Shown here: positions 8,895 through 32,399 of the stretch, one piece after another
How positions within the stretch are numbered: the stretch's first letter is position 1
How the letters are laid out: the number at the start of each line of letters is the position of its first letter
Assembly: GCA_028281885.1 (NCBI GenBank)
Contig: JANQJA010000011.1
Span: 129,200-193,199 of the forward strand
DNA from: Pseudomonadales bacterium
GTDB taxonomy: Bacteria > Pseudomonadota > Gammaproteobacteria > Pseudomonadales > Azotimanducaceae
DNA length: 64,000 nucleotides
Direction of reading: 5' to 3'
Made by a program: the position numbers and the translations under genes
Notes under the pieces: model-generated
What the model saw: the letters and a program-made list of their open reading frames with translations, nothing else
Database searches by the model: none
Told to the model about the DNA's origin: nothing

Positions 8895-8899
8895 TTCCG

Positions 8900-9304: not shown

Positions 9305-9398
9305 CACGCACCTTGATGTTGCTGGCATCGATTGTGTGGTTTTGCTAGCCTTCGGAAGTTTTTTTAGCGGTCTATTCTTAAAGAGGGAGCAACATCGC

Positions 9399-15571: not shown

Positions 15572-15661
15572 TCGGCCTGGCGGACATCCGCTGTACCTGT
15601 TTCCTGCTTCACTATAGGCTTGTCTGCAACGTGTTGTGCAACCTAGTGTTTGGAGTTGACG

Positions 15662-17947
15662 ATGGCTTCCGAGCCAACTGAATCAGCCGGCAACTTGCTT
15701 GCCCAGATACGCACTCCCGGTACCTTGATGCTGGATTGCAGTGTGCTGAAAAAGGGTAATGACAACTACCATGTTGACATCCAGCTATCCAAACGCTTTA
15801 TCGGTGCGACCCGGGAAGTCATCCAGGGCATGTCGAAGCGCGCGTTGTCCGGACGCCGGCCAGCGGCCACATCCGAGGATGCCGAGGAGTTCCGCGAGGC
15901 CTACGTTGAGATCGTTGAGGACAGCCTGCATCGGACCAAGACAGACCTGACGCCAGCCGAGGTGTGTGTATTGCATTTCGGCGTGGTCAAGTTTGTCATT
16001 GCTGAAATTCGGGCGAGTCTCGACGCTGTCGTCCAGGATCTGGAAGAGACACTGGCACAGCAGCAGTATGCCGGCTCCCGCAGCCTGCTGGTTACGCAGC
16101 AGAAGTTCGCCTGGGTCAGGCAGCACTATGCTTCGTTTCAGTTTCGTATCACTCGCGCGATGTTGAGGCTGCTGCAGCGGGAAGAAAACAACCAGCTGCG
16201 CACGCTACGAGAGCAGTTTCTTGGCGACGCCATGATGGAGTTGCCTCACGTGTTGTTGAATCCGTTGCTGGCGGGCCCACCGCGGGATGCACTGCTGCTG
16301 ATGGAAAACTATGCCCTTTGGGCTGACAGCGGTAAGAGATTTTCGTCAGCCAACGAGAAGCTTGAGGCGCTTCTCAGGAAGCGGTTGAGTCAGCTTGATA
16401 TTGTTTCGTTGAAACCACCGGGTAAGTCGGAAGGTGCAACCGAAGTTTACGACGAGTTCGGCGGACTTTTCAGCATTCAGGAGATGCTGGGCCCGGCGGT
16501 CGATCAGAAGGAATCGGTATCCGAGGAATTCAGCTGGCTCGATCATCCGGGCAATTTTCGCCTGTTATTTGACGCCAGCGTGCACGAGCGGATGCGGGCT
16601 CAGCAGGAAGGTCGGCGTGCCCAATGGAAATTCCGCTCTGGGGCCAGGAAACTGGAGAAAATCGGCGTTGAAGCGATACGCGCCCTTGCCTCCGATGCTG
16701 AAGCGAAAATCATGATTGCAGGTTATGTGTTGCGGGAAGAGTGGCTGCCTGCCTGGGATGACATTCTTGATGTCGCCAGCGCCTGTGCTTATGTGGCAGG
16801 GCAGGATGACAAGCGAATCCTCGCCCGCATTGATCAGAGCAAGGAAGGCGCACTGCTGATGATCAAGAAGCTGGACGAATTGTCGAAAAAAGCTGCGCGA
16901 GTTTACAAGGAAGACATGGATGAGATTCGGGTGCGAATCCTCACCGATGTATCTCGATATCGACTGCATCTCAAATACTTCCGATTTGCCCATCGAATAT
17001 TCAATCGAATTTCTGTGTTAACTGAGCCTGAAGAGATCCATCTATCCAGGGCCAACGGGCGGCTCTATCAGCTTACCGGTCGCGAGGAAGATGAAGACGA
17101 TGTGTTGCATGAGCCGCAGATCATCCACCATGCGGTGCTCAAGGCGGATGTCAGGGGATCAACGACCGTGACACAGGAACTGATCCGGCAGAATCTGAAT
17201 CCTGCTTCCTATTTCAGTACTCGATTCTTTGGGCCTATCAATGACCTGCTGTCGGTGTATGGGGCAGAGAAAATTTTCATTGAGGGGGATGCCATCATTC
17301 TCGGGATCCATGAGTACGACCAGTCACCGGAGGACTGGTATTCGGTGAGCCGCATCTGCGGTATTGCCAAGGAAATTCTCGATATCGTCAGTTCGAAGAA
17401 TGCCCATTCAAAATCCACCGGTCTGCCGTTGCTGGAGCTGGGTATCGGCATCTGCTACGAGGATGACCGACCACTGTTTTTGTTTGATGAAGACAAGCCC
17501 ATCATGATTTCGCCGGCCATTGGTGAGGCCGATCGAATGAGCTCCTGTAGCTGGCGACTGCGAGAAGCGTTTGCGGAAGCTCCCTTCCATGTGCAGGTAC
17601 TGAACATGTCCGAGGACGACAGTAGTCGAGGTGAGAAGGGGCAGACCCAGGTTCGATACAACCTGAACGGCATCCTGATGGCTAACGATGCCTTTATCAA
17701 ACTGAAGTCTGAGATTCAGCTAAAGAAGGTCAGCATCAAGGTCGTGGATCGCAGCGAAACGATGTATGTGGGCCGCTTCCCGGATGTTAGGGGGAAGGAA
17801 CGTGAGCTGGTCATTCGCGAGGGTATTGTCGGTCGCTGGGACGGTGAACAATCAACCCCCGGACCGGAAGACGGAGAACGGTATTACGAAGTACTGCCCA
17901 ACTCGAAGCTGGCGAGCCAGGTGCTGGAGGTTGTGCGTAGCCAATAG
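15662..17947 (+). CDS. Large uncharacterised protein with C-terminal class III nucleotidyl-cyclase-like domain
   Basis: ATG 15662 is preceded by GGAG (15652-15655). Residues ~490-640 (nt 17117-17569) read VLKADVRGST ... FIEGDAIILG ... LGIGICYED ... SPAIGEADRMSS. These fit the beta1-Asp, GD-Asp and Arg positions of class III cyclases. The N-terminal ~480 aa are helical with no motif I recognise. Confidence 0.6.
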   Translation: MASEPTESAGNLLAQIRTPGTLMLDCSVLKKGNDNYHVDIQLSKRFIGATREVIQGMSKRALSGRRPAATSEDAEEFREAYVEIVEDSLHRTKTDLTPAEVCVLHFGVVKFVIAEIRASLDAVVQDLEETLAQQQYAGSRSLLVTQQKFAWVRQHYASFQFRITRAMLRLLQREENNQLRTLREQFLGDAMMELPHVLLNPLLAGPPRDALLLMENYALWADSGKRFSSANEKLEALLRKRLSQLDIVSLKPPGKSEGATEVYDEFGGLFSIQEMLGPAVDQKESVSEEFSWLDHPGNFRLLFDASVHERMRAQQEGRRAQWKFRSGARKLEKIGVEAIRALASDAEAKIMIAGYVLREEWLPAWDDILDVASACAYVAGQDDKRILARIDQSKEGALLMIKKLDELSKKAARVYKEDMDEIRVRILTDVSRYRLHLKYFRFAHRIFNRISVLTEPEEIHLSRANGRLYQLTGREEDEDDVLHEPQIIHHAVLKADVRGSTTVTQELIRQNLNPASYFSTRFFGPINDLLSVYGAEKIFIEGDAIILGIHEYDQSPEDWYSVSRICGIAKEILDIVSSKNAHSKSTGLPLLELGIGICYEDDRPLFLFDEDKPIMISPAIGEADRMSSCSWRLREAFAEAPFHVQVLNMSEDDSSRGEKGQTQVRYNLNGILMANDAFIKLKSEIQLKKVSIKVVDRSETMYVGRFPDVRGKERELVIREGIVGRWDGEQSTPGPEDGERYYEVLPNSKLASQVLEVVRSQ

Positions 17948-17951: not shown

Positions 17952-18923
17952 CTAATTCGGTGGTAGGTACTTTGCGCAGGTTGCCTGGACCGCTTCGGCG
18001 GTTGGTGGTATCGGGGCGTCCTCGCTTGTCACATATCGGAACCGACCTGATCCGTGATCGGCGCCAAACAGGCGGACATTGACTTCCGGCACGACAAATC
18101 CGTTCCCACGAATTGCAGCGTATTCCTCATTAAGTTCATCGAAGGAGCGGCCGGATTCCTGATCGCCCGTTGTGACGCCTTCGTGCAACTGATGAAAGCT
18201 GCCTTCACCGGCCAGGTAGATGGGTACGACGCCTTTGTGCTCGACCGCTCGCTTGTAGAAGTCCAGGTTCACCAGCCCCCCACCCGGAGACTGAAAGGCT
18301 TCGTCAAAACCGGACAGCGACTGAAAGAGGCGTTGTGACACAACGATGCAGTTGCTTTCCGCAATCGGACCAAACCAGCCCTGCGGACATGAACCGCCCC
18401 AGCTGGCGATTTCAAACAGGCGATAGCCATCGCTTGGCCAGTCAATGTGCGCAAGCAGCCGGTCCTCCACGGATTGGGTATACCCTGCGTTGACGCTGTT
18501 TCGCTGATGGTCGGGCCCCAGGTGAAGTCCAAGCACGGCAATCACGGGTTCAGGGTTGTCCTTGACCGCCCGACGGGCGCCGGCCACCACACCGGGACTG
18601 AGCATGCGTGCGCCGTCGATCATGATGGCGACGTAATCTCCCTGTGCCTGCTGGACGCCATAATTGACGGCGCCCGCCGGGGAGGGGCTGGCCTCCTCCA
18701 GATAATAAGAGCGTAGCGGAACACCGATGTCTCGTGCATCGATGTCGAGCGGTGGTTTCGAACCGTTGTCGACCAGAATGACCTCCCAGTCGGTATCGGC
18801 AGAGTTCTGCTGGTAGCTTCTCGACAGCGTATGCAGCGTGCGTGAGATTTCTCGAGGCATGTTGTACGCGATGACAACAACGGAGATGAGCGGGCGTGGG
18901 TTCAGCAGTCTGCGAAGTCGCAT
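17952..18923 (-). CDS. Glycosyltransferase family 2
   Basis: The ISVVVIAYNMPREISRTL ... VILVDNGS GT2 N-terminus begins right after Met at 18923. The longer ORF (start 18992) would leave only 16 bp to the divergent gene. Confidence 0.75.
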   Translation of the reverse strand: MRLRRLLNPRPLISVVVIAYNMPREISRTLHTLSRSYQQNSADTDWEVILVDNGSKPPLDIDARDIGVPLRSYYLEEASPSPAGAVNYGVQQAQGDYVAIMIDGARMLSPGVVAGARRAVKDNPEPVIAVLGLHLGPDHQRNSVNAGYTQSVEDRLLAHIDWPSDGYRLFEIASWGGSCPQGWFGPIAESNCIVVSQRLFQSLSGFDEAFQSPGGGLVNLDFYKRAVEHKGVVPIYLAGEGSFHQLHEGVTTGDQESGRSFDELNEEYAAIRGNGFVVPEVNVRLFGADHGSGRFRYVTSEDAPIPPTAEAVQATCAKYLPPN

Positions 18924-19008
18924 GAGCGGGGTCGAGGTGGATCGATGATGATGGCTTATTGTAGTTGAACAGCCGCGGATTTGTTGTGCCATGCGTTAAC
19001 ATGATGCG

Positions 19009-21039
19009 ATGAATGAACCACCAATTAATGGATCGGCGCCGATCACTGTTGTTGTCACGGGCATGCACCGTTCCGGAACCTCGGCGGTTGCAGGGTATCT
19101 CGAACAACTCGGCTTCGCGGTCCCGTCAGAGACTCTGCCGCCGCATCCGCAGGACAACCCGGGTGGCTATTTTGAGCCCCGGGAACTGGTTCAGTTGAAC
19201 AATGGATTGCTGCGAGAGATGGGTGCGAGCTGGCAATCCTTCGATCCGATCGATCCCGGGTGTTTTTCTGCGGCAAATGTTGCGGGGTTCCGTTCCGATG
19301 CCAGGGCATACCTGCAGAAGGTCGGCGTCGGCAAACAATCACTGGTGCTGAAAGATCCACGTCTGACACGACTGATGCCGTTCTGGGCGCCGTTGCTGAA
19401 AGAGTGTGACCCTGATTTTCGGCTGGTTCATGTGCTGCGCGATGCCTGTTCGGTAGCGGTGTCGCTCGGACGGCGGGCACTTGATCCGAAACTTGCACCT
19501 GCAGCTATTGAGGACCCGCTCCATGGCACCTTGCTCTGGCTGCGATATAACCTGGATCTCTGTTGCCAGGCGCGGGCATTGGGCGTGTCCCCCTGGGTGG
19601 TTGGATACGAAGAATTTGTGTCGGAACGTGGGGTTCGTGAAACCCTGCTTCGCTCGCTGGGGCTCTCCGCCATCACCAAAGAATTTGTTCCAAACCGGCC
19701 GGGCCGTGCTGACGCAGAACCTGACCTCCCTGCGGACTGGATTCATGTCCTGAAGGCCGTAGCCGATGCGATCCGCAGACTCGATGTTGATGCGCTGAAC
19801 GGCATCGACGCGCTTGCATCGCAACCAATCCCCGCTTCGAATCAGAGGGCTCCGGACTTGCCCCCGGTAGAGCTTCTTGCAGCAGCGAGGGTCCGTCACG
19901 TTAGCGCACACTGGTCGAAGCCGTGGCCATATCTCGATACGCCAAAGAAGCAGACGAGTACACCAGGGCGCGATCCCGGTCGGGATGGAATTCTGTTTGT
20001 AACGGCAGATGCGGGTACCAGGGGGCATCTCTACCGGGTTAAGAACCCGGTTGATGCGCTGTCTCGAAAAGGACTGACCACGCACTGGACGACACTGGAG
20101 CACGTCTCGAGCGACCTCAGCGTCCTCGCTGGCTATCGTCATCTGATCGTGCATCGCTGTGAATGGGGCGAGGGTCTGGCAGCGTTGTATCGGGCCGCGC
20201 GCGCCGCCGGGATCAGGATCGTCTATGACATCGATGACCTGGTGTTTGATCCTGCCGTGCTGGAAGCAGGCGAGGTCGATTTCATCCAGCGTCTGAACCA
20301 GGCCGAGCGGGCCATGTGGAGGGCGCGGTTTAAGAAGTATCGTCAGGCCCTCTGCCATGCAGACCTGTCGCTGGTACCGACCGCGAGCCTACAGGAGGCG
20401 GCTGAGGCAGCGGGGACACCATCGGTGATCAAACCCAACGGGCTGAGTCCGGAGACGATCGCATTGAGTCGTTTCTGGGCATCACGGCCGCTTTCTGGTG
20501 CCAGGAGACTGGGCTATGCCAGCGGTACGCCCACTCACCAGGGAGATTTTGCGCAGATAGAAGATGTACTGATCGATTGTCTGGGGCAGCATCCCGACTG
20601 GACTATCACTGTGATTGGCCATCTCGACGTGACCTCGCTCAGAAAGCGGCTGGGAGCAGGCAGAGTCGAAACCAGGCCGGTGGTCGCACACATCAACCTT
20701 GCTTTCGAACTCGCGCGGCTCGATCTGACCGTAGCGCCGCTTGAGATGAATAACGCCTTTTGTGCTGGCAAGAGTCCGCTCAAGTGGTTCGAGGCTGCGG
20801 CCGTGGACGTACCTGTCATCGCGTCAGAGACGGGCGCGTTTCGTGATGCGATCAGGCACGGCAAAACGGGCCTGCTGGCGGCTGACGAAACTGAATGGGC
20901 AGTCGCCCTCGAGCGATTGATGTCGAGCGCCGATGAACGTCGAGCCATCGCGTCGGCAGCGAGCGAAGATGTCCTTGGCAGGTTCGCGGAAGATATTATC
21001 GCCGACGCTTTGATAAGAGAGCTGGACCTGATCGGTTGA
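19009..21039 (+). CDS. Bifunctional sulfotransferase (N-terminal) / glycosyltransferase family 1 (C-terminal) fusion protein
   Basis: The N-terminus has the 5'-PSB-like loop VVVTGMHRSGTS. The C-terminal ~340 aa contain GT1/GT4 motifs (GKSPLKWFEAAAVDVPVIASETGAFRDAIRHGKTGLLA). Confidence 0.75.
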   Translation: MNEPPINGSAPITVVVTGMHRSGTSAVAGYLEQLGFAVPSETLPPHPQDNPGGYFEPRELVQLNNGLLREMGASWQSFDPIDPGCFSAANVAGFRSDARAYLQKVGVGKQSLVLKDPRLTRLMPFWAPLLKECDPDFRLVHVLRDACSVAVSLGRRALDPKLAPAAIEDPLHGTLLWLRYNLDLCCQARALGVSPWVVGYEEFVSERGVRETLLRSLGLSAITKEFVPNRPGRADAEPDLPADWIHVLKAVADAIRRLDVDALNGIDALASQPIPASNQRAPDLPPVELLAAARVRHVSAHWSKPWPYLDTPKKQTSTPGRDPGRDGILFVTADAGTRGHLYRVKNPVDALSRKGLTTHWTTLEHVSSDLSVLAGYRHLIVHRCEWGEGLAALYRAARAAGIRIVYDIDDLVFDPAVLEAGEVDFIQRLNQAERAMWRARFKKYRQALCHADLSLVPTASLQEAAEAAGTPSVIKPNGLSPETIALSRFWASRPLSGARRLGYASGTPTHQGDFAQIEDVLIDCLGQHPDWTITVIGHLDVTSLRKRLGAGRVETRPVVAHINLAFELARLDLTVAPLEMNNAFCAGKSPLKWFEAAAVDVPVIASETGAFRDAIRHGKTGLLAADETEWAVALERLMSSADERRAIASAASEDVLGRFAEDIIADALIRELDLIG

Positions 21040-21043
21040 TATG

Positions 21044-21712
21044 CTATCGCTGAAACACGGCCATCTGCTGCGCTCTTGGATGCCGCCAGGTGTCATCGAA
21101 GGAAGCCGAAAGTCCGCCGAGTTCAGCCATCCGGCTGACTTCTTTGCGGGAATAGTGATAGGGGTTCATGTCGTGGTGGGTGACGATGCCGCCTGGCTGA
21201 TGGAGGATTTCATCGACCCATGCATCACCTGGCGCCTCGAAATAGGTTGCGTACATCGCTGCATTGGGGCCGAGCACACTCGCGGCTGATTTCAGGCACC
21301 TGACAATCTGGTCGCGGGGCAGATGGGTGAAAACGGACACTGCGACTGCCATGTCGAATGAATCGCCAAGCCTGTCGAAAGCAAATTCGCCATTGACGAT
21401 TAGTTTTGGTGCCTTTGCGGTCAGTCCTGCTTCCGTTAGCTCCACCTCGGCGGCCTTGATCAATGAAGGATTCACGTCGATGCCGTAATAGTTGCCTGTG
21501 GCCAGATAGTCGATGAAATGCAATCCACCCCGCAGGCTGCCGCAGCCGACATCCAGTAATCGGTGTTCAGGTTTCAGGCCCCGGGAGATGAGATAGTCGA
21601 GCTGCAGGCGGCCGACCTGCTCCCACATACCACCAACAAATTCGCGATGGCGCTTCTGCCGAATATCCTCGGCACTCAGTTCTTCACGGTCATATTTGCT
21701 GTTTCCGTTCAC
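21044..21712 (-). CDS. Class I SAM-dependent methyltransferase
   Basis: LLDVGCGSLRGG motif I. In-frame GTG 21712 is preceded by AAGGGGGA and lies just downstream of the OST stop (TAA at 21723-21725). The ORF-track start at 21871 would overlap the OST gene. Confidence 0.75.
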   Translation of the reverse strand: MNGNSKYDREELSAEDIRQKRHREFVGGMWEQVGRLQLDYLISRGLKPEHRLLDVGCGSLRGGLHFIDYLATGNYYGIDVNPSLIKAAEVELTEAGLTAKAPKLIVNGEFAFDRLGDSFDMAVAVSVFTHLPRDQIVRCLKSAASVLGPNAAMYATYFEAPGDAWVDEILHQPGGIVTHHDMNPYHYSRKEVSRMAELGGLSASFDDTWRHPRAQQMAVFQR

Positions 21713-21722
21713 AACGTCCCCC

Positions 21723-23882
21723 TTAATTGATCCGCCAGGCTCTTGCGGTAACGGTAGAGACCACCTCCTCGAATCCCGCGGGAGGATTGCCCAGCAAAAA
21801 CGCCTGAACAACCAGAGAATCGAGTAGTCTCGTATCGACCAGCAGTGTATCGCCGCGATCAACCCGGACAATGTAGGTCAGGTTGCCGCCTGGCCGTATA
21901 CGCCAGCGATAAGTGCGGTTGACCCTGCCCTGCGCATCCGACTCGGCAAAGATGACCTGGGAAACGTTTGCATTGGACACTGCTACCGTGCCTTTGGCCG
22001 GGTTGTCGTTGAACTGTTGGCGAAGAATCCGGCCTTCTGTTGAGGTTCCCTTGAAATAGGTGATCACCGGTGGCCTGGATGTTTCGCCTGTTCGGGGATC
22101 TACCGAACAGAAACGGTAAATCTGTCCCAGTTCGTCGAGCATCTCGTCGTTGAGAAAGAGATAGGTGTCATTCGCTGGATGACTGTCGGGAATTACCTGA
22201 CCGCCAATCAGCGCGTTGATCATCGCGTCATCCTGCCAGCGATAGCCCTGTTGCTCCACGTTCAGCGACAGCCTGCGAAGCAGGTTTCCTGCATCCTGCG
22301 CATCGCCGCAGATTAATGCATGGCTGACGGCGAAGAGCAGTTGTTGGTTGACCATCAGGCCGCCATCGATCACAACGTTGGCATTGCTGTAATAGCGCAG
22401 TGGATAGCCATAATCCCACCAGGTGATGGCCAGATCGCGGGCGCCGGCGACGTCAGCCAGTGCGGCGGCAGCCTCTGCCGTGGGGCTCAAAATGATCGGT
22501 GCCTGCAGCGAACTCCGTGCAGCTGAGACCTGGAGAACGACAACTGCACCGCAGGCGACTAGAGCCGTAGTGCGAATAAACTTCGGAACGAACGCGTTGG
22601 CCAGACAAAAGACCAGATAAGCCAGCCCCAGTGCCAGCCAGGGCACGGCGAAAATGCCGAAGCGGATGCCAAAGGGGAAAGCCAGCAATCCCAGGCCGAT
22701 CATTGGCAAGGCGATGGATAGTTCACGGCGTCTCACCATCATCAGAGCCATACCGATGACGGCGAAGACAAATATGAAGGGCGTGGCGCCCGACAGCATG
22801 CCCATGGTGTCACCGAAATCGGTCACGGACATTTCCGCGACCATCGATTGAACCTCAAGAAAAGAAAAGTTGCCCTGCGAAGCTGGCGTCTGCAGGAAAT
22901 AGAAACGGAATTTGTCGATGATGAATTCGGCGCTGGCGATCGCGATGGCCCCACAGGCAAGGACCCCGATGCCGGCGATCATCCTGGGGTTATTGAATGC
23001 AGTGGGCACTCGATCGACCAGCGGCCACAGCGCGTAGATTGCTATCGGCGCAATAAAACCAGCGATCGGCTGCAACTGGGTAACCAGTGCACCCGCCATC
23101 ATGGCCGGTATTGCGATCGCGCTGTGCTTGCCGCTCAGAAAAATGGCAATGACCCCCGCGATTGGCGTCATGGCGGCGAATACAATCCACATGGATGGAT
23201 ACCACCAGCTGCCAATGCTGATCATCAGGCTGCCAACAAGTCCGATGAGCCGCGAGCCTGTCTGCAGCGCGATGATGGTCCCGCAGGCTGCCGCTGTGGC
23301 CAGGGTGACGTTAAGCATATCGGTATCGAGGGCGCCCGGAATAGTACGGCCAAGATAGACTTCCGCTGTGGCTGCCAGGATTGCGGCGGCGAAACCCAGC
23401 CAGACAGAACCCAGTGCCGAGCCAAGCAGGACGATGGGTATGACGAGCAGGGAGCCAAGCAGGGGAGGTGCGAAAACAAAAATGTCTCCCAGTTCCAGGG
23501 GCAAAGCCAGGGCTGCGACGGCGGTCAGCTGGCTGACCGGGAATGCTGTACGCGATCTTGGATCCTGGCGGTCTTCGAGAATGTCCCGGGTGCCATCAGC
23601 CCAGGCGTAGCCGTCGTGGGTCGTGAGAATGTAACTGTCATCGAAGCGTGTATAGGGAGCATTGCCGTAGTCGATGAACCAGGTGCAACGTGCGCCGAAC
23701 GCCACGATAAAGGCAACGAAAACCAGCAACAGGATCGTCGGACGCGTCGGTTTTTCCAGTGTTATTTGCAGGCGTTCCAGTCGGGCCGGGCTTGAGCGTT
23801 TTTGGTTTCTTGCCAACTCAGGAACTCGTTTCTGTGATGGATTTTGGGGCGGATTGCATTGCGCGCGATATGCGCCGACCAA
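21723..23882 (-). CDS. pglB: PglB/STT3-type oligosaccharyltransferase (N-linked protein glycosylation)
   Basis: Polytopic N-terminal domain with HDGYAWADGTRD (23583-23618), DTDML (23313-23327) and FLEVQ. Then WWDYGYPLRYYSNANVVIDGG (WWDYG = 22407-22421) and a soluble C-terminal domain. No in-frame ATG exists near the start. Candidates are TTG 23882 or TTG 23816, the latter lying 1 nt after the acyltransferase stop. Confidence 0.85.
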   Translation of the reverse strand: MVGAYRAQCNPPQNPSQKRVPELARNQKRSSPARLERLQITLEKPTRPTILLLVFVAFIVAFGARCTWFIDYGNAPYTRFDDSYILTTHDGYAWADGTRDILEDRQDPRSRTAFPVSQLTAVAALALPLELGDIFVFAPPLLGSLLVIPIVLLGSALGSVWLGFAAAILAATAEVYLGRTIPGALDTDMLNVTLATAAACGTIIALQTGSRLIGLVGSLMISIGSWWYPSMWIVFAAMTPIAGVIAIFLSGKHSAIAIPAMMAGALVTQLQPIAGFIAPIAIYALWPLVDRVPTAFNNPRMIAGIGVLACGAIAIASAEFIIDKFRFYFLQTPASQGNFSFLEVQSMVAEMSVTDFGDTMGMLSGATPFIFVFAVIGMALMMVRRRELSIALPMIGLGLLAFPFGIRFGIFAVPWLALGLAYLVFCLANAFVPKFIRTTALVACGAVVVLQVSAARSSLQAPIILSPTAEAAAALADVAGARDLAITWWDYGYPLRYYSNANVVIDGGLMVNQQLLFAVSHALICGDAQDAGNLLRRLSLNVEQQGYRWQDDAMINALIGGQVIPDSHPANDTYLFLNDEMLDELGQIYRFCSVDPRTGETSRPPVITYFKGTSTEGRILRQQFNDNPAKGTVAVSNANVSQVIFAESDAQGRVNRTYRWRIRPGGNLTYIVRVDRGDTLLVDTRLLDSLVVQAFLLGNPPAGFEEVVSTVTARAWRIN

Positions 23883-24960
23883 GGTTCATGGCTGGCAGCT
23901 CGATCACTCGATAGGTGATTGCCGCACATCCGATCGTCGCGATCAAGGCAATCCATGCGGCCAAAAACGATGGTAACGACTCTGCCAGGGTGACAGCGCG
24001 GATTACCGGAATGTGCAGCAGATAGATGCTGAAACTGATCCGCCCGGTGATGGCCAGGGCAGGGTGACCGAGCCAGGTGCGAATGATGTCGGGTCCAAAC
24101 AGTGTGCAGGCCATGACCATACCCCAGATGATCGCGTAGGGTCCGATCCAGCCGTGAAAGTAGTCGAGTCCGATAGCATCGTTCGAGAAAACCAGCTGAG
24201 TCAGGCGTGGTACTGAAATGAGGACCAGCGACATTGACAGGCAAAACAACGCAATGCTGCAGGGTTTGAGCCAACGCCTGAGCAGAGGGGCGTAGTGGTG
24301 GCCGGCGTATGCGAGTCCCATCCCGACCATGAACGTGGGCCAGTAGGCCCAGAGGTTGATGGTATTTCGGGTGTAGGCGCCACCCCAGGGAACAACAAAT
24401 GGCAGCATAAAAAGCAAAATAAAAAGGCCGAGGCCAGCCGAGAGGTTACCGAAGCGCCCGATGAAGACAGCCGCTGCCAGCGCGACCGGCAACAGACCGT
24501 AGAACAGGAATTCAACCGGTATTGCCCAGAAGATGGAGCGGCCTTCGAGCATGGCCAGGTGCCTGAGCGCATCCGACAGGTCCATTCGGATAATACTGAT
24601 CGGCCAGGCGTAGCTGGTGGCAACGACGCAGAACAGCAGAACGGTGGTGTAGAGGGGCAGGATACGCAGGCATCGACGTAAAAGGTAACCGCACCAGTAG
24701 AGGGTGCTCCAGCCGCGGCTTTCCCTCGCCTGAATAGCCTGGTTTGTCAGTAGCCATGCGCTCAGAACGAAAAACAGGTACACGCCGGCCTTGCCGATAC
24801 CCTGAAAATCGGCGCCTGGAATAAGGTCCAGGCCAAAGCCACTGAGATGGCTCAGCAGTACGATAAGTACGGCGATACCGCGAATTCCGTCGAGGGCGGG
24901 CATGTTATTACCAAAACTGGACCTGTCGAAGCATACCCTGAGGTCGTCTGCCGATGCCAC
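23818..24960 (-). CDS. Acyltransferase family 3 (membrane O-acyltransferase)
   Basis: LDGIRGIAVLIVLLSH N-terminal motif and ~10 predicted TM helices. Sits directly upstream of the OST gene on the same strand. Confidence 0.8.
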   Translation of the reverse strand: MASADDLRVCFDRSSFGNNMPALDGIRGIAVLIVLLSHLSGFGLDLIPGADFQGIGKAGVYLFFVLSAWLLTNQAIQARESRGWSTLYWCGYLLRRCLRILPLYTTVLLFCVVATSYAWPISIIRMDLSDALRHLAMLEGRSIFWAIPVEFLFYGLLPVALAAAVFIGRFGNLSAGLGLFILLFMLPFVVPWGGAYTRNTINLWAYWPTFMVGMGLAYAGHHYAPLLRRWLKPCSIALFCLSMSLVLISVPRLTQLVFSNDAIGLDYFHGWIGPYAIIWGMVMACTLFGPDIIRTWLGHPALAITGRISFSIYLLHIPVIRAVTLAESLPSFLAAWIALIATIGCAAITYRVIELPAMNLGRRISRAMQSAPKSITETSS

Positions 24961-25153: not shown

Positions 25154-25182
25154 TTGACAAGGCGCAGCACGGTTCATAGTAT
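25154..25182 (+). promoter_or_regulatory. Sigma70-type promoter for the secreted-protein gene
   Basis: TTGACA (25154-25159), a 17-nt spacer, then TAGTAT (25177-25182). This predicts a 5' UTR of roughly 80-85 nt before ATG 25272. Confidence 0.55.
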
Positions 25183-25271
25183 GCGTCGTTGAGGGTGCTC
25201 TTGGCTCTCACGGAATTCCTTGGTCGACAAGGTGTTTCTTCGAACCAACAATTAAGTAGGAAACGTTTCTT

Positions 25272-26723
25272 ATGAAAAAACTGTTACTTAGTCTGGCTAT
25301 GGTTGCGACCATGGGGATTTCTGTGGGGGCCAACGCTGTAGTAGCCATTGACGATGGATCCTCTGCGGATGCAATCGCCATTGCGGGCGAGTACACCATC
25401 CCAGCAGGTGGTCTTATCACTAACTCTACAACGAACCAGCTTGATCTTTCGACAGAACTGGGCTTTGGTACTGCGCAAAACGTTTCGCGTGCGATCCGTA
25501 TTGACTGGACTAACGCAACAGTCAACGGAGAGCATACGTTCGAAGTCGACAGTTCTGACTGTACGATGGGTACGCCGGTGACTGGCGTTACCCCGTCAGT
25601 AGGTGGTTCTGGCGATTCGTTCCTGATCTTCGAATTCGATAACACTTGTGGTGAAGACTTGCCGCAGGAAGCTGGGATCTTCGTCAGGGTGGGGAGCCTG
25701 AATGTAAGCGCATTCCCCGTTACCGTTCAGTACCGACTGTTTGAAAACTCATTCGCGGCAACTGACCCGGATAACAACCCAGCAGGTTCAACCGAATCCG
25801 ATACAGTGTTGACATCTTCTGATGCTCTTGAATTTGCGGCTTCAGCAGATTCCGGTACGGAACAGATTGACGTGACTCAGGATTCCACGTTCTTTAACGG
25901 TGGTACTGGTGACGATACAACTCCGTTTGGTAATGCAACCCTGGATCTGGCTTCTCCGGCTCCGTTTATTCCGTCAGGTGGTGATCTGGTACAGCTGACC
26001 TCGGTGAGCCAGGTGGTTGACGATTCAGACAGTGACCTGACGGTAACTGGTGAGTTCGGTGCAGCTGCAAACCTCGGTTGTAACGGTTCTGCCTCATCCA
26101 CTGCAGCCAGTATTCTGGACGGTGCGGATGCTGTTTTCCCGGCCTCTGCCACGGATGATGCGACCTTCAACGGTAACGAGACGTATAGCTGTTTCTTTGA
26201 AGCTGACGGTACTACGATTATTGAAGAAACCACGTTCTCGCTGACTGCGAATCTGGCGGGTCAGACAGGATTTAACGCTTCAGTATTCGGTCCGTTCACT
26301 TTGAGTGAGTTCGACAAGAACGGTTCTTCAGCGATGGTTAACGTCCTGCTGAACAGCTCGCTCTTTGTTAACACGGTTCGTATTCTGAACAAGTCGTCCA
26401 TTGCGGGTGACGTGAGCATCACCATCTATAACGATGGCGGTGACTCGGTGACCTTCCCACTGTCAGTGGTCAATCCATTTGGCCGCAATGACATCATCAC
26501 CTCGTCAAATCTGGGTGCTGGTGAAGCGACACCTGCCATGCGAGTGAGTGACCTGATCACTGCAGCACGTACGGTTGATTCAGGCTTCGGTCAGACCTCA
26601 GCACTGAAGAACAAGTACCGCATTGTAGTTGATGCTGAGTTTGGTTCAGCAGCCAACCCGGTTCGAGTTCAGGTGACGGTTGTTTCTAACGGTTGGGGTG
26701 TCGATATCGACAACATCAACTAA
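25272..26723 (+). CDS. Secreted acidic Asn/Ser/Thr/Asp/Gly-rich protein of unknown function (candidate glycoprotein)
   Basis: Signal peptide MKKLLLSLAMVATMGISVGANA|VV. AGGA lies 10 nt upstream of the ATG. There are 11 N-X-S/T sequons and 4 Cys. Its own promoter and a strong terminator make it monocistronic. Confidence 0.8.
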   Translation: MKKLLLSLAMVATMGISVGANAVVAIDDGSSADAIAIAGEYTIPAGGLITNSTTNQLDLSTELGFGTAQNVSRAIRIDWTNATVNGEHTFEVDSSDCTMGTPVTGVTPSVGGSGDSFLIFEFDNTCGEDLPQEAGIFVRVGSLNVSAFPVTVQYRLFENSFAATDPDNNPAGSTESDTVLTSSDALEFAASADSGTEQIDVTQDSTFFNGGTGDDTTPFGNATLDLASPAPFIPSGGDLVQLTSVSQVVDDSDSDLTVTGEFGAAANLGCNGSASSTAASILDGADAVFPASATDDATFNGNETYSCFFEADGTTIIEETTFSLTANLAGQTGFNASVFGPFTLSEFDKNGSSAMVNVLLNSSLFVNTVRILNKSSIAGDVSITIYNDGGDSVTFPLSVVNPFGRNDIITSSNLGAGEATPAMRVSDLITAARTVDSGFGQTSALKNKYRIVVDAEFGSAANPVRVQVTVVSNGWGVDIDNIN

Positions 26724-26748: not shown

Positions 26749-26777
26749 AAAGCCCCTGCTCGCAGGGGCTTTTTTTT
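26749..26777 (+). terminator. Rho-independent terminator
   Basis: Stem agcccctg (26751-26758) / caggggct (26763-26770), loop ctcg, followed by seven T (26771-26777). It is preceded by an A-rich tract, so it may act in both directions. Confidence 0.85.
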
Positions 26778-27117: not shown

Positions 27118-29163
27118 TTACTCGGGCTGGATCAGTGCTTCTCTCAGCTGATCGGATATTCGCTGCGCATCTGACTCGTCCTTCAACACATAGGCCGCCA
27201 CCATCACAAGCAGTTCAGTACTGCTCCCGGTGGCCGACTCGGATTTGAACGCCTTGCCCAATAGCGGGATGCGGCCCAGCAACGGGATACCCTGTTCGCC
27301 CTTGCTCTGGGTATTGGAGATCAGACCACCGAGTACGATCGAACCCCCGTCCCGCAGGGTTAGCGAGGTATTGACGGATCGATTGAACACAGTGGGCAGA
27401 AAGGTATCACCGGAGCCAGTGTCCTGGGTTTCCGCGAGCGTCTGTTGAATCTCGATCTCGACCAGTCCGCTGGCCTGGACAATGGGTTTCACACTGAGAG
27501 TGACGCCCGTGCGGCGGTATTGGAACTGCTGCAGCACATTGGTATTTCCATCGGACTGGAAATCGCCCTGCGTCGTTGACGTCAAAACCGGTATCTCATT
27601 GCCCACTTCGATAGTGGCCTCTTCGCCACTTTTGACCATGAGTTTCGGTGATGAGCGGATCACTGCGCGATTTGAATCGTAAAACGCATTAATGACTGCC
27701 CGGGTCTGCCCCGCACTGTTGAGCGTGTAGGTAAAGCCACGCCCACCCAGGCCCAGCCCGCCGAGCGTTCCCAGTGTACCTGACAGATCATCAGCGGTTC
27801 CTTTGGCCAGCCATTCGACGCCGGTGCCTTCTGAATCGTTCAGCGTGACTTCCGCTAGCAGGACTTCCAGCAGTACGGACGGGACTGTCTTGTCCAGCTT
27901 CTGGATGATCTCAAGTAGTTCCATCCATTCGCTGCCGCGGCCTCGATAGATCAGCACGTTTCGCTGTTCATCCACGACCAGGCTGCCATCACCGACCTGA
28001 CTGTTCACTGCATCCGTTGACTGGTCCTCTGACCCCTGACTTCGCATTGAAGTTCCGTTGCCGCTGTATAGACGGCTCACCAGCGAAGCCAGGTCTTCGG
28101 CGCTGGTATTTTGCACTTCGTAGGTAAAGATGCCGGAGTCGATCTGGCGCTGGTAATCCCGGTCCAGGCGCGTTGCCCAGGACTGTACGTTATTCAAGGC
28201 GACTTTGTCGTTTGCCAGAACAACCAGCGCTTCCAGCTCTGGCATTGGAACCAGTGTAATGGTGCCCGGCAGACCACTGGGGCGACTGACGGCATAACCG
28301 GACGCAGACAGCAGGTCTGTCAGTCCTTTTTCCAACGCCGGGATTTCGATAAAGGCGGGTCGAATCAGGATCGAGTTCTTGCCCTTTAACAAGGGCTGAT
28401 CGAAGTAGCGAATTGCGTCAACCGCGTCAGCCACTTCTGCAGCGGGCCCGCGGAGCAGTATTGCATTTCGTGTGTTGTCCTGGGTCATGGTGACGCGTTG
28501 CCCCTTGATCAGGCCGTCCACGATACTGGTGATCTGGGAGGTTCGAACCACGTTTAGCTCGACTACCTGAAACACCGGCCGGTGGCTTGAGGGCACTTCG
28601 GGCATGGCTTCGCCTGTAATCAGCAGCGGCCGCTGATCGCCGGACACCGAACCTGACATATTGAATTGCCAGATGTTGGCCACCTGTTCGAGCGTCACAC
28701 CATAATTGGACAGGACCGTTCGCGCGGTTCGAAACAGTTCTTTGGGGGGCAACGGATCAGTCAGCCTGAGCGTCACCAGATCTGTCCGGTTCCTGAGTGC
28801 TGGTGCAAGCGTGTAGGAGAGATTCAGTTTTTCTCCGAAGATTTCGTTGATAAAGACAGGCAATGGCAGTTCGTTGACGCTGAGTTCGATCGGTGGCCCC
28901 TTCAGCTCGGGAACCTCGCTTGAGCTGCTAACTGACCGAGGTGCGCCGGTTGCCATGACTGGGCCGGGTTCTATTTCGATCGAGGTCTGCCCCCGATCAA
29001 CTGCCGCTTGTTCCGTGCTCTCGGCCCGGCCTGTACCGGTTTCCAATCGTTGACTGCCAAATAGTGAGCTGCGGTCAAGTGGGGTGCCAACGCATCCCCC
29101 CAGTGCGACGGTGCTTGAAATAGCGACGGCGAGTGCCCGTTTCTTGAAGGTCGGATTATTCAT
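27118..29163 (-). CDS. gspD: Type II secretion system secretin GspD (lipoprotein-type)
   Basis: Secretin C-domain motifs (VTLSVKPIV..., GGLISN..., GIPLLGRIPLLGKAFKS). N0/N1-like N-terminal repeats. Last gene of the gsp operon. Confidence 0.85.
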   Translation of the reverse strand: MNNPTFKKRALAVAISSTVALGGCVGTPLDRSSLFGSQRLETGTGRAESTEQAAVDRGQTSIEIEPGPVMATGAPRSVSSSSEVPELKGPPIELSVNELPLPVFINEIFGEKLNLSYTLAPALRNRTDLVTLRLTDPLPPKELFRTARTVLSNYGVTLEQVANIWQFNMSGSVSGDQRPLLITGEAMPEVPSSHRPVFQVVELNVVRTSQITSIVDGLIKGQRVTMTQDNTRNAILLRGPAAEVADAVDAIRYFDQPLLKGKNSILIRPAFIEIPALEKGLTDLLSASGYAVSRPSGLPGTITLVPMPELEALVVLANDKVALNNVQSWATRLDRDYQRQIDSGIFTYEVQNTSAEDLASLVSRLYSGNGTSMRSQGSEDQSTDAVNSQVGDGSLVVDEQRNVLIYRGRGSEWMELLEIIQKLDKTVPSVLLEVLLAEVTLNDSEGTGVEWLAKGTADDLSGTLGTLGGLGLGGRGFTYTLNSAGQTRAVINAFYDSNRAVIRSSPKLMVKSGEEATIEVGNEIPVLTSTTQGDFQSDGNTNVLQQFQYRRTGVTLSVKPIVQASGLVEIEIQQTLAETQDTGSGDTFLPTVFNRSVNTSLTLRDGGSIVLGGLISNTQSKGEQGIPLLGRIPLLGKAFKSESATGSSTELLVMVAAYVLKDESDAQRISDQLREALIQPE
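29092..29163 (-). other. Lipoprotein signal peptide/lipobox of GspD
   Basis: MNNPTFKKRALAVAISSTVALGG|C gives an L-G-G-C lipobox with Cys24. Confidence 0.6.
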
Positions 29164-29170
29164 ATCTGAT

Positions 29171-29713
29171 CTACTGTGTCAGTTGACTCATGTTGGCAGT
29201 TAAATCTGGCCTGGGGAACAGCTCAAGCCAGCGTGATTCCTGATGGGCGTTCTTGAGCAGCACGCGGTTACCTTCGATGCGTTTCAGGATCACAGCATCA
29301 GGAAGATGGGTGCCTGTTGTTGCTGAAAGGATCTCGATGCCATCTGATCCACGATCCGCTAGCAGGGCTTCGACCGGCGAGCCGCGAACGTTGATGATGG
29401 CGACGAGATGAAAACGATCGAGTCCCGAAGGAAGCGCCGGCTTCACGATGACAGGTTCCGGTTTGGACGGCCGTTCTTCGACCTGAACCGGTGGTGCGGG
29501 TGCTCTTGACGGTGCCGAGAAGTAACTTTTCTCCATGATCTGATTTAGCGCGGGTTCTGTCGTTTCAAGACCAATAAATGCCTGCTGGCTGTCACCCAGT
29601 ATCGTGTTGGTGTCGTTAAATCCCGAACCGCGGTATCCCGGCGCTGCCAGCCACCAGCCCAGCACGAGGATAGTGCTACCAAGGATCAGTGCGACTTTCT
29701 GGCGCAGCGTCAT
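29171..29713 (-). CDS. T2SS inner-membrane component, GspC/XpsN-like
   Basis: N-terminal TM helix (VALILGSTILVLGWWLAAP), a Pro-rich linker and a small C-terminal beta domain. Its position between gspM and gspD matches xps-type clusters. The assignment rests on position and architecture only. Confidence 0.45.
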   Translation of the reverse strand: MTLRQKVALILGSTILVLGWWLAAPGYRGSGFNDTNTILGDSQQAFIGLETTEPALNQIMEKSYFSAPSRAPAPPVQVEERPSKPEPVIVKPALPSGLDRFHLVAIINVRGSPVEALLADRGSDGIEILSATTGTHLPDAVILKRIEGNRVLLKNAHQESRWLELFPRPDLTANMSQLTQ

Positions 29714-30300
29714 TGGTCGTTACTCTCAAGACCGGTCAATGGTGTATTCACGTCAATCACCATAAAGACCCCTTTTCGGGTGCCGACGCGAATGTCGATG
29801 GTGTCAATGATCATTAACGGTTGATAGGACTCGAGCCTGGCGAGCCAGTCCCAGGGGACATTGACGCCGTCTTCCAATGCAGCCGTGATCTGACCTGTCA
29901 TCGTCCAGAGTTCTCTCGAAATCGGCTGCGGTTCGCCGAATTCGACCCTTCGGATCTCGACAGGGTCGATGGTATTGGTGCTCAGGTTGTCGATCGCTTC
30001 CCTGATCACAGCTTTGGCGAGCCCCCCGGTATCAACCGTCCAGGTCTGTTCCAGCAGGGCCTGGTGTTGAGACTCCACCACAGAGGCTTGCTTTGACCAG
30101 AAGGTATCGTCCTGTAAAGATCGCAGGTTCTCAAGCGCTGCTGTTTCACGCTGCCAGGCGATCTGTTTCAGGGTTAGTTCGTCGTCCAGCCACAAAGCAG
30201 CATAGAGCAGCAGAATCGCGCCGATCGCCCAGGTCCCCAGGCGCAATAATCCACTGCTCGCCCACTGCTCGCGCAGTTCAAGTTGTAATCGCTCAATCAT
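29710..30300 (-). CDS. gspM: T2SS protein GspM-like
   Basis: 196 aa with a single N-terminal TM helix (LLRLGTWAIGAILLLYAALWL). Overlaps gspL and the next gene by 8 and 4 nt. The assignment rests mainly on position and architecture. Confidence 0.55.
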   Translation of the reverse strand: MIERLQLELREQWASSGLLRLGTWAIGAILLLYAALWLDDELTLKQIAWQRETAALENLRSLQDDTFWSKQASVVESQHQALLEQTWTVDTGGLAKAVIREAIDNLSTNTIDPVEIRRVEFGEPQPISRELWTMTGQITAALEDGVNVPWDWLARLESYQPLMIIDTIDIRVGTRKGVFMVIDVNTPLTGLESNDQ

Positions 30301-31411
30301 CAGCGCTGCCTGGGGTGTCGTTCGTTGCGACGTTCAGATTGACAATGGCCAGGTGCTGATTCGTCGGCGTCTCCGCCTGAACGTTACTTAGTGCGGGCAA
30401 CTCCTCAAGGGAGCGGACGATGGTCGCCGCATTGATACCGATCGGCTGTTTATGCCACATCAGGGTGAGCTGGCCGCCCCGGTAGGACCATTGGCGCAGC
30501 ATGGTGTCATCCAGTTGCAGCGTATCTCCGATATCCCGTGCCAGTTCGAGGTGGGAGGGCTGCCTCATCGAGGTCAGTGCCCGGTTAAACTGGCTTAACA
30601 GGCGAACCTGATCGCGCTTTGCCAGCACGCTTTGAACTTCTGCCTTGATCTCCTGCTGTGACCGTTTTAGCGCATAGACCTCCCAGCTGGCACGCAGGTT
30701 AGCGACAAGAAAGATGGCAACGACGACAGCCAGCGCGGCACAGGTCATGGGCAGGACCCGGGACTCCAGCAGGCTGGTGGATGCCACAAGAGGTTCGCCG
30801 CGGGGCTGGCTGTCCTTGTCAATAGAGGGGCGGAGCGTTGGTTCAAGCGGGGCGGTGATACTGGCCTGCTGGCGACCCAGCCAGGCTCGGGCCTCGTCTG
30901 GGGAGATAGGACGGACTTCCCGTCGCTCGAACAAGCCAAGCGTCGGGTGCTGGTACTGAAGCAGGAACAAGCCTGACTCGTCATCGCAGACATAGCGGTA
31001 TTGGCCGTCAGCTAGCACAGGCCACATTGCGGTTTCAGGAACCAGGGTCACGTCACCCAGACTTTCGTGAATCTGCTGTTCGAGCGTCCTGGGCCAATAC
31101 CAGACGAGGGCGCGCTCACCATCGCGGACATACCAACCGTTGGCATCCTTGTAGGGGGCGCTTGCTTCCAGCTCGAGGGCAATGGATTCGCGCCATTGGC
31201 TGCGTGGCACTCCCTTCAGGTCGATGCGGGCGAACAGCAGCGCCTGCCGGGGCAGGGCGCAGGCGCCAAGCGGCAGCGATGGCATCGCGCCGATGGGCAG
31301 GGCGTCGTTACCCGTCCAGCGAAAGCTCGGACGGGAAATACGCTCGATAGTTGGGCCAGCTAGTTGCCGGACGCGCCTCACCATCTGATCGAGAGATTCC
31401 ATCAGGGCCAT
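30293..31411 (-). CDS. gspL: T2SS protein GspL-like
   Basis: A ~220-aa cytoplasmic domain, one TM helix (LPMTCAALAVVVAIFLVANL) and a ~125-aa periplasmic domain. ATG 31411 has AGGAA 9 nt upstream but overlaps the gspK 3' end by 104 nt. An alternative start is ATG 31285. Confidence 0.55.
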   Translation of the reverse strand: MALMESLDQMVRRVRQLAGPTIERISRPSFRWTGNDALPIGAMPSLPLGACALPRQALLFARIDLKGVPRSQWRESIALELEASAPYKDANGWYVRDGERALVWYWPRTLEQQIHESLGDVTLVPETAMWPVLADGQYRYVCDDESGLFLLQYQHPTLGLFERREVRPISPDEARAWLGRQQASITAPLEPTLRPSIDKDSQPRGEPLVASTSLLESRVLPMTCAALAVVVAIFLVANLRASWEVYALKRSQQEIKAEVQSVLAKRDQVRLLSQFNRALTSMRQPSHLELARDIGDTLQLDDTMLRQWSYRGGQLTLMWHKQPIGINAATIVRSLEELPALSNVQAETPTNQHLAIVNLNVATNDTPGSADD

Positions 31412-32399
31412 GGGTTGATTCCTGGAGCTTTGTGAATGGAAGATCGACGCGGTGATCGTATTCGATCACCCACGGTTCTTCCCCCGAGGAAGTAAATGTT
31501 ACGTTGATCCAGCGTGCTTGTCGCCCGTCCGCTCCCAACATGATTCGAACCGGGCCGAGCGGAAAGTATTGGGTGGACTCCGAGAAAGGAACAATCATAC
31601 CGGTCAGGTTCTGCACGGTATCGGGGCCGGTCAGGTTGTATCGCTGCCGGGCGGAGACGAATCGCGACGCCTGCTGTTCAGACCAGCCAAGCGCCGCCTG
31701 GAGCCACAGTCTGGTTGCCGTATTGAGCTGTACTGAACCGCCACGCAACGTGTGTGAGTTGGTGATCAGGTCCTGCAGCGATGGTCCCAGCTCGTCAGCA
31801 ATCGGCAGATTATTGAGTTCGTGAGGAGATACCATATAGCGATTGGCCGGGGCGGGCAGCGAGAGCGAACGATAGTCGGTATCTTCTGCACCGTTAATGG
31901 ACCTGAAATCATCGAGGTCCTGGTAGTCGGTCACCTGGCTCATGAGACGCGCACCCGCTTCGGCGGAGAGCCCCAGTGTGTGAGTCATCGGTCGCCATTC
32001 TTCCGCAAACTCAGAAACCAGAGAGAAGGTCGACAGGGTATCCTGCAAGGCGAAGGTGACATCGCCAATTCCATCGTACGGTGTACTGTCGAACCGCAAC
32101 GACGGGCTGATATCCACCTGGTCTTCAAATCCAGACAGAGGATCCAGTTCCATCTCGTTGTCGTTCGGCGTCAGGTCGGCACCTGCTGCGGTTCGGGGCA
32201 GGCCGGACAGCAGGAACAGCAGCGTCTGCTCGGTGGCCAGCATGTTGCGTTCCCGCTCGGAGACGAGACGCATTCGATAGGTCTGGTCGATCGTGGCATT
32301 GATCTGCGCGATGATCGTGCCGGCAATGATGGTCATCGCCGCCAGCGTCCACAGGACGACAGCGAGGATGAAGCCGGATTCACGATGCTGCTCCTTCAA
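31308..32399 (-). CDS. gspK: T2SS minor pseudopilin GspK
   Basis: N-terminus ESGFILAVVLWTLAAMTIIAGT is a prepilin-like helix lacking Glu+5, as in GspK. In-frame TTG 32399 is preceded by GAGGAG and overlaps the gspJ stop (TTGA). The longer ORF-track N-terminus is Arg/Pro-rich and implausible. Confidence 0.7.
   Translation of the reverse strand: MKEQHRESGFILAVVLWTLAAMTIIAGTIIAQINATIDQTYRMRLVSERERNMLATEQTLLFLLSGLPRTAAGADLTPNDNEMELDPLSGFEDQVDISPSLRFDSTPYDGIGDVTFALQDTLSTFSLVSEFAEEWRPMTHTLGLSAEAGARLMSQVTDYQDLDDFRSINGAEDTDYRSLSLPAPANRYMVSPHELNNLPIADELGPSLQDLITNSHTLRGGSVQLNTATRLWLQAALGWSEQQASRFVSARQRYNLTGPDTVQNLTGMIVPFSESTQYFPLGPVRIMLGADGRQARWINVTFTSSGEEPWVIEYDHRVDLPFTKLQESTHGPDGISRSDGEARPATSWPNYRAYFPSELSLDG

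Follow-up and report, generated by a model that had tools for sequence, protein, structure and literature searches.

A divergent PglB-like oligosaccharyltransferase among sulfotransferase, methyltransferase and acyltransferase genes, next to a type II secretion operon, in a Pseudomonadales bacterium

PglB is the single-subunit oligosaccharyltransferase (OST) of Campylobacter, and most of its described homologues come from epsilonproteobacteria, deltaproteobacteria and aquificae contributing a few (PMC4894442). In the canonical pgl locus, the OST gene is accompanied by PglC (Bac_transf), the bacillosamine genes PglD/E/F, the glycosyltransferases PglA/H/I/J and the flippase PglK. Judged by analogy, the closest system in which an OST is joined with dedicated sulfotransferases is the N-glycosylation pathway of Halobacterium salinarum, in which the AglB pathway includes the sulfotransferases Agl30 and Agl31, acting on the N-glycan of surface glycoproteins (PMC11980604; PMC13308652). 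Two further systems resemble our locus on the side of secretion. The Aeromonas A-layer gene vapA, for a secreted protein of ~50 kDa, lies beside its own type II secretion genes, spsE-L, in a cluster with glycosyltransferases (GTs), an acetyltransferase of family 3, an epimerase, rml genes and Wzm/Wzt (PMC4483657), and NpdA, an exported protein of ~52 kDa with no known domains, is encoded beside a 12-gene gsp cluster, its family occurring in Beta- and Gammaproteobacteria, including Halieaceae and other marine gammaproteobacteria (PMC10765051). In the literature searched, we found no description of a bacterial system with both an OST and a sulfotransferase, nor of a gammaproteobacterial PglB. 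Here, we describe a divergent STT3/PglB-type OST gene in a stretch of 64,000 nt (hereafter, the window) of contig JANQJA010000011.1 (positions 129,200 to 193,199; assembly GCA_028281885.1) from a Pseudomonadales bacterium of the Azotimanducaceae. The OST gene sits among genes for glycan tailoring, near a gene for a secreted acidic protein, p483, and a type II secretion operon; the OST and its operon may point to a bacterial route to sulfated glycoproteins of the N-linked type.

Gene identities were established with Pfam, and coordinates were checked against the list of open reading frames (ORFs) and by direct reading of the sequence (Table 1). The neighbours of the OST gene are, unlike those in the Campylobacter pgl locus, genes for an acyltransferase_3 (AT3), a methyltransferase (MT) and a fusion of a sulfotransferase with a glycosyltransferase (ST-GT1), and Pfam detected none of the canonical pgl components between 17 and 27 kb of the window. 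The five gene calls made in an initial annotation of the sequence were borne out by Pfam and the ORF list, as were its readings of the two tight junctions in the array AT3-OST-MT, of which MT is the last gene. The AT3 stop codon TGA (23820-23818) is separated by 1 base from the OST start codon TTG at 23816, and the OST stop codon TAA (21725-21723) is followed by GGGGGA, CGTT and the MT start codon GTG at 21712, that is, by a gap of 10 nt. The TTG start is backed by the 697-aa database entry for this OST (P0001) and by the alignment with P0002, the one close relative (see below), which begins at residue 1. Also as annotated, the fusion converges on the array and the glycosyltransferase gene GT2 diverges from the fusion, an arrangement kept in the relative locus. 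The stop codons of MT (21044) and the fusion (21039) face each other with 4 nt between them; the same pair overlaps by 7 nt in the relative (L001 12780-12786) and is also convergent in a third locus, L091. Since such a gap or overlap leaves no room for terminators, the MT and ST-GT1 transcripts must overlap. With the longest ORFs taken, the start codons of GT2 and the fusion are 16 nt apart. Gene calls on a public contig identical to the window (L004) give shorter starts, by which AT3 probably begins at ATG 24903 (361 aa), the alignment with homologues opening at residue 22, and GT2 probably at 18923 (323 aa).

Table 1. Features of the window, with positions counted from its first nucleotide.
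Feature	Coordinates	Strand	Basis
GT2 glycosyltransferase, soluble	17952-18992	(-)	Pfam Glycos_transf_2, 45 bits vs cut-off 23.3
ST-GT1 fusion, 676 aa: N-terminal PAPS-type sulfotransferase (~residues 1-300), C-terminal GT4	19009-21039	(+)	Pfam
Class I SAM-dependent methyltransferase (MT), cytoplasmic	21044-21712	(-)	Pfam Methyltransf_12/25/11
OST, single-subunit STT3/PglB-type, divergent lineage, 697 aa	21723-23816	(-)	Pfam STT3 and STT3-PglB_core
Acyltransferase_3 (AT3), membrane O-acyltransferase	23818-24960	(-)	Pfam Acyl_transf_3, PF01757, 93.9 bits
p483 promoter (TTGACA-17-TAGTAT) and leader of ~90 nt	25154-25271	(+)	Promoter scan
p483, secreted acidic protein, 483 aa	25272-26723	(+)	Predicted signal peptide, composition
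Type II secretion operon, gspE through gspD	27118-37250	(-)	Pfam Secretin, T2SSK, T2SSG, T2SSF, T2SSE
Epimerase (NAD-dependent), 621-aa protein, polyprenyl-phosphate sugar synthase	37336-41187	(-)	Pfam, NCBIfam
WecA/MraY-family polyprenyl-phosphate N-acetylhexosamine (HexNAc)-1-phosphate transferase	44867-45940	(-)	Pfam Glycos_transf_4

The OST scores 70.7 bits against STT3 (PF02516; cut-off 24.5) and 58.4 bits against STT3-PglB_core (PF21436; cut-off 23), and its alignment with C. lari PglB (3RCE; E 1.2e-47) spans the whole protein. Like the Campylobacter enzyme (3RCE/5OGL), with which it shares 24-27% identity over the full length, it is a single-subunit STT3-family protein with ~10-13 transmembrane (TM) segments and a periplasmic domain. 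It reaches only 211 bits against the NCBIfam PglB equivalog (NF050801; cut-off 1300), and the C-terminal domain of PglB (PF18527), which almost every other search match contains, was undetected in P0001 and P0002. We compared individual residues in an alignment of 14 sequences, comprising the window OST, P0002 and 12 other PglBs, in C. lari numbering. The catalytic set common to the window OST and Campylobacter PglB (D56, R147, D154/D156, E319, R375, WWDYG and Y468) is all kept in both members of the lineage, and they deviate at three substrate-contact positions. The equivalent of R331 is Met (“RISG” to “MLSG”) and “GGKH” has become “GGLM/I” (GGLM in the window), both changes being confined to the window OST and P0002 and found in none of the 12 other PglBs; in the MI motif (MxxI), which contacts the +2 Ser/Thr, the Met is invariant and the Ile of the 12 PglBs is replaced by Glu in both members (MLDEL). 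R331 of C. lari PglB pairs with the acidic residue at position -2 of the bacterial sequon, and the Desulfovibrio PglBs, which likewise lack an Arg there (S358 in DdPglB, Y381 in DvPglB) and belong to a different lineage, favour non-acidic residues at -2 (PMC4894442). Lacking the Arg by which this residue is read, the window OST probably needs no acidic residue at -2. By its sequence, the OST is thus best called a PglB-like enzyme, which matches the family-level profiles and fails to match the PglB equivalog or to carry the Arg of the -2 rule.

The OST belongs, as far as the sequences searched can tell, to an isolated and very rare lineage, found in two genomes. A word-indexed search of 5.8 billion clusters returned a single relative at 50% identity, followed by matches at ~27%, and a scan of one genome per species returned the same relative, encoded on a Pseudomonadales chromosome from a metagenome-assembled genome (OZ254080.1), followed by Campylobacterota. 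In a HMMER pass over 1.84 billion cluster representatives, the next relatives were 30-31% identical, with nothing above 31%. One of the best-scoring of these outside relatives (P0140, 31% identity, in locus L090) lies in a classical PglA/C/D/E-PglB set. The locus of the close relative (L001/L002/L005, encoding P0002) has the same gene order as the window: a type II secretion operon, a 479-aa protein, the OST, MT, ST-GT1, GT2, a 761-aa protein and radical-SAM/Memo-AMMECR1 genes, with protein identities of 45-76% between the two. There, MT overlaps the OST stop codon (L002), ST-GT1 is convergent and GT2 divergent. The adjacency of the OST with the tailoring genes, noted in the initial annotation, holds in the relative for MT, ST-GT1 and GT2, which are all kept beside the OST, and fails for AT3, which is missing from L005, where tblastn found no remnant of it. 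AT3 is an accessory gene. The annotation was also right in calling the gene set unusual: across 1.23 Mb from 79 other PglB-homologue loci, neither single-sequence nor profile searches picked up a homologue of the sulfotransferase domain or of AT3, and MT drew only two weak matches.

A 765-aa protein (15650-17947, plus strand) without a Pfam or NCBIfam family separates the glycan genes from the Memo-AMMECR1/radical-SAM pair and is conserved beside GT2 (67% identity) only in the OST-bearing relative. Its C-terminal part carries a putative nucleotide-cyclase-like pattern, “KADVRGST...EGDAI”, recognised by eye.

The five proteins differ in their predicted location. Both the OST and AT3 are polytopic, with nine predicted TM-like segments in AT3; by its Pfam match, AT3 is a member of its family, of 361-380 aa and without an SGNH extension. 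In GT2, MT and ST-GT1, no membrane segments or signal peptides were predicted. The N-terminal domain of the fusion scores 23.9 bits against Sulfotransfer_3 (PF13469), just below the cut-off of 27, and the PF13469 matches of its homologues are unmarked or weak. Its 5′-phosphosulfate-binding loop GMHRSGTS, the motifs KDPR and R..V..SL and the 3′-phosphate-binding Arg/Ser (R144, S152) are invariant in 16 homologues. The C-terminal domain is recognised by Pfam as Glyco_trans_1_4 at residues 527-639. A confident AlphaFold2 model (predicted local distance difference test, pLDDT, 88.7) found as its best Foldseek match the GT4 enzyme PglA of C. concisus (E 2.4e-12), with the GT4 enzymes HepE, MshA, PimA and BshA almost as good (E 1e-12 to 1e-10 over the five); on the modelled fold, the domain is a GT4, i.e., a retaining-type GT-B enzyme. 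PglA itself acts on an undecaprenyl-diphosphate-linked sugar.

The sulfate donor, 3′-phosphoadenosine-5′-phosphosulfate (PAPS), and the methyl donor, S-adenosylmethionine (SAM), are cytoplasmic. Since MT and ST-GT1 are soluble as well, methylation and sulfation should take place on the lipid-linked glycan before it is flipped across the membrane; among the tailoring enzymes, only the membrane protein AT3 could act at the periplasmic face. The initial annotation had offered, as an alternative, that the glycoprotein is methylated and sulfated after transfer. Gene adjacency would agree with this, but neither MT nor ST-GT1 has a signal peptide or membrane segment, both depend on donors that are cytoplasmic, and of the N-glycan sulfotransferases of Halobacterium, Agl30 is membrane-associated and Agl31 cytosolic (PMC11980604), so that we consider modification after transfer highly improbable.

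The ST-GT1 family counts about 60 full-length homologues (30-46% identity), and we sampled ten of their loci, that is, the window and nine others, the P0065 locus being known from its gene table alone. GT2 is paired with ST-GT1 in all ten (41-64% identity wherever DNA was available). A p483 homologue lies beside ST-GT1 in six of the ten loci, including the window: its identity to p483 is 61-62% in L005, 32% in L087, 30% in L086 and 26% in both L085 and L091, with E values of 1e-16 to 1e-55 outside L005. Five of these six p483 loci (the window, L005, L085, L087 and L091) also carry the type II secretion operon (GspD 52-76% identical), and the contig of the sixth, L086, ends before the position where it would be expected. 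Homologues of MT occur in L005 (58% identity), L092 (42%), L091 (32%) and L087 (30%), and an AT3 homologue (46%) adjoins the p483 homologue in L085. The OST is present in two of the ten loci, the window and L005; no OST remnants were found with tblastn in the loci without one. L091 has the layout of the window minus OST and AT3, with GT2 divergent from ST-GT1, ST-GT1 and MT convergent, a p483 homologue and the secretion operon.

The tailoring genes are thus not specific to the OST, which changes the reading of the initial annotation: GT2 and ST-GT1, with or without MT or AT3, occur in loci devoid of an OST (L085, L086, L087 and L091). The conserved unit is a secreted protein, its secretion system and a GT2/ST-GT4 cassette, to which some loci add MT or AT3. 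Since the cassette lies with p483 and type II secretion genes in the absence of the OST, it is the secreted protein and the secretion system that are its conserved partners and the OST that is an add-on. It looks like an insertion into an island for surface protein, secretion and glycan, of the kind of the Aeromonas A-layer and NpdA clusters, in one small Pseudomonadales clade, in which the divergent OST is placed at the head of the MT gene.

L086, L087 and L091 (positions ~1-9900) contain, besides rmlABCD and Wzm/Wzt, a GT2_3 gene as well as a 1045-1188-aa multi-GT protein adjoining GT2, the L091 protein showing a weak sulfotransferase match too. The gene set of these three loci resembles an ABC-transporter-type polymer pathway.

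The secreted protein of the window, p483, has a mature form of ~47 kDa and is very acidic, with 12.8% D+E, 3.0% K+R and ~65% small or polar residues. It has no Pfam or NCBIfam match, a profile search of the PDB with its family gave spurious matches only, and an AlphaFold model made from a three-sequence alignment was unusable (mean pLDDT 40.9). Its layout, an exported acidic protein of ~50 kDa next to a complete gsp operon, is conserved in L005, L085, L087 and L091 and recalls both vapA beside spsE-L in Aeromonas and NpdA beside its gsp cluster. We rejected p483 as an orthologue of NpdA, however: hmmsearch, BLAST and hhalign all match the signal peptide only (residues 1-22). The Aeromonas cluster, for its part, has rml and Wzm/Wzt genes in common with L086, L087 and L091, but no OST, sulfotransferase or N-glycosylation has been described for it. 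In the absence of homology to NpdA beyond the signal peptide, reading p483 as a surface-layer protein is an analogy and not a family assignment; on that footing, p483 is a candidate cargo of the type II secretion system, a candidate surface-layer-like protein and a candidate acceptor for N-glycosylation.

The GC content at third codon positions (GC3) of the p483 gene is below that of its neighbours, and a strong terminator follows at 26749-26777. Its consensus promoter, leader and first 60 nt (20 codons) are ~97% identical in DNA between the window (25154-25340) and L005 (9450-9670). The leader holds a palindrome, CCTTG(G)TCGACAAGG (14-15 nt), and an element, AGGAAACGTTTCTTATG; neither the palindrome nor the element TAGGAACGTTTCTTATG varies among the six loci with p483 (the window, L005, L085, L086, L087 and L091). 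No Rfam family matched the leader, in which RNAalifold suggested a small hairpin and a possible anti-Shine-Dalgarno pairing without covariation. The leader elements may be an operator or an RNA element; a search for further copies of the palindrome as a shared operator within the window gave no convincing second copy.

From the gene identities, junctions, catalytic residues and co-occurrences, all of which we observed, we infer a donor glycan, an acceptor and an order of steps. At the cytoplasmic face, a polyprenyl-diphosphate-HexNAc primer, for which the WecA/MraY-family gene of Table 1 is the candidate initiator, would be extended by GT2 and the GT4 domain of the fusion. The fused sulfotransferase would add sulfate from PAPS, and MT would O-methylate the glycan with SAM. 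After flipping, AT3 may O-acylate it in this organism, and the OST would then transfer it en bloc to Asn in the N-X-S/T sequons of periplasmic proteins, p483 being the prime candidate, modified ahead of its type II export. That the OST moves the modified lipid-linked glycan of the cassette onto Asn of periplasmic proteins is, in our judgement, the most likely of the readings considered here, and about as likely as not to be correct.

Several observations weigh against it. To begin with the OST itself, its adjacency to the cassette is known from two genomes only, which are syntenic across the entire 22 kb compared, and since all of this is syntenic, the two-genome comparison alone cannot tell function from inheritance. 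Moreover, the change of Ile to Glu in the MI motif and that of GGKH to GGLM could alter or impair OST function. It is conceivable, then, that the adjacency is inherited synteny without a functional link, and that the OST is decaying or has been repurposed, being, e.g., inactive on proteins. The restriction of the OST to two related genomes, the three deviating substrate-contact positions, the undetected PF18527 and the low score against the PglB equivalog would all fit such a course. The gene itself argues otherwise: in the two genomes, whose OSTs are 50% identical, the reading frame is uninterrupted and complete, and the proteins have retained every catalytic residue, WWDYG and long invariant blocks of the periplasmic domain. 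The GC and GC3 of the OST match those of the neighbouring genes, by which we also rejected a recent horizontal transfer. We regard decay or mere synteny as improbable.

With respect to the donor, no clear flippase was identified, the cassette lacks an OST in eight of its ten loci, and in L086, L087 and L091 it sits with rmlABCD and Wzm/Wzt. Because it is mostly without an OST and lies beside rml and Wzm/Wzt genes, it may chiefly make a polymer of the O-antigen type and not an N-glycan. Cassette and OST could then serve separate functions, the former making a sulfated, methylated and acylated O-antigen- or capsule-like polymer that anchors or accompanies the surface protein, much as the O-antigen of LPS does for the A-layer of Aeromonas, and the latter putting a different glycan (e.g., from the genes at 41-62 kb) on other proteins or releasing free oligosaccharides. 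This would accord with the ~1100-aa multi-GT protein found in the same three loci, with the many further glycan genes at 41-62 kb of the window, including a second sulfotransferase, and with Aeromonas, where the A-layer and type II secretion genes are nested in an ABC-2 O-antigen cluster (PMC4483657). On the other hand, the OST and MT genes are translationally close in both genomes, and MT belongs to the cassette; nor does the 64-kb window contain a Wzm/Wzt pair. Separate functions, the main rival reading, are possible and, on the whole, somewhat unlikely. PglB-type enzymes accept O-antigen-type undecaprenyl-diphosphate glycans, and hence use of the glycan in a polymer and in N-glycosylation would not exclude each other.

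As to the acceptor, p483 has 11 N-X-S/T sequons, the highest density in the window, against 6.7 expected (P about 0.05). The p483 homologues of the OST loci have 11 and 7 sequons and those of OST-less loci 3, 7 and 7; furthermore, 5 of the 11 sequons are shared by the two orthologues, which is about chance at 61-62% identity. With weak enrichment and no difference between loci with and without an OST, sequon enrichment and conservation are uninformative, and we do not take them as evidence of an acceptor role. p483 is possibly the acceptor, an obvious and unproven one, which the sequon statistics neither support nor exclude.

Put together, transfer of the cassette's glycan by the OST, with p483 as the acceptor, would amount to a system similar to that of haloarchaea, in which a gammaproteobacterial OST without the -2 acidic rule N-glycosylates a surface-layer-like protein exported by type II secretion, with a glycan that is sulfated, O-methylated and, here, O-acylated. 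In this complete form, the reading is tentative and, taken in all its parts, doubtful. The haloarchaeal pathway differs in being archaeal, in its dolichol carrier, in using AglB rather than PglB and in having separate sulfotransferases that are not fused to a GT4.

Further glycan genes lie beyond the secretion operon. The three genes at 37336-41187 immediately precede gspE and share its strand: the 621-aa protein has 10 TM segments and no family match and resembles GT-C enzymes, and the polyprenyl-phosphate sugar synthase is PpgS/AglJ-like, with a GtrA-like membrane tail. Together they could add another glycosylation step, in the periplasm, and be transcribed jointly with the secretion genes. 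The WecA-like gene, 21 kb from the OST, is by its sequence a candidate for the initiating enzyme of the lipid-linked glycan, and its homologues adjoin pglB in the Sulfurospirillum-type loci L052, L076 and L037. It is part of a low-GC glycan island at 44000-64000 (GC 0.46-0.51, compared with 0.54-0.60 in the first 42 kb), which also contains several GT2/GT4 genes, YdjC, a DegT aminotransferase, two methyltransferases, a second stand-alone sulfotransferase (55799-56929) and an 11-TM, 499-aa protein without a family match. A 1519-aa protein (46938-51497, minus strand) combines MptE/Maf-like, GT4, FkbM methyltransferase and sulfotransferase domains, and a second MptE-like gene (46118-46909, plus strand) stands beside it. 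A flippase-like LPG_synthase_TM protein is encoded at 53433-54371.

The occurrence of this OST lineage in two gammaproteobacterial genomes widens the range described for PglB. Glycoengineering is actively looking for OSTs to which a minimal N-X-S/T sequon suffices (PMC12229607), and a lineage without the Arg of the -2 rule and with a changed MI motif bears on that search. The loci compared here define a wider, undescribed island composed of dedicated type II secretion, an acidic secreted protein family that has no meaningful PDB match and whose promoter and leader are strongly conserved, and the GT2/ST-GT4 cassette; the island can be tested in marine and environmental gammaproteobacteria for a role as a surface-layer system. 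The link of the OST to the ST-GT4 fusion, MT and AT3 points to an N-glycan chemistry of sulfate, methyl and acyl groups. To our knowledge, such chemistry has so far been documented in Archaea and Eukarya only. Should the complete reading, with p483 as the acceptor, prove true, it would give Bacteria their first described sulfated N-glycan and also their first N-glycosylated protein of the S-layer type.

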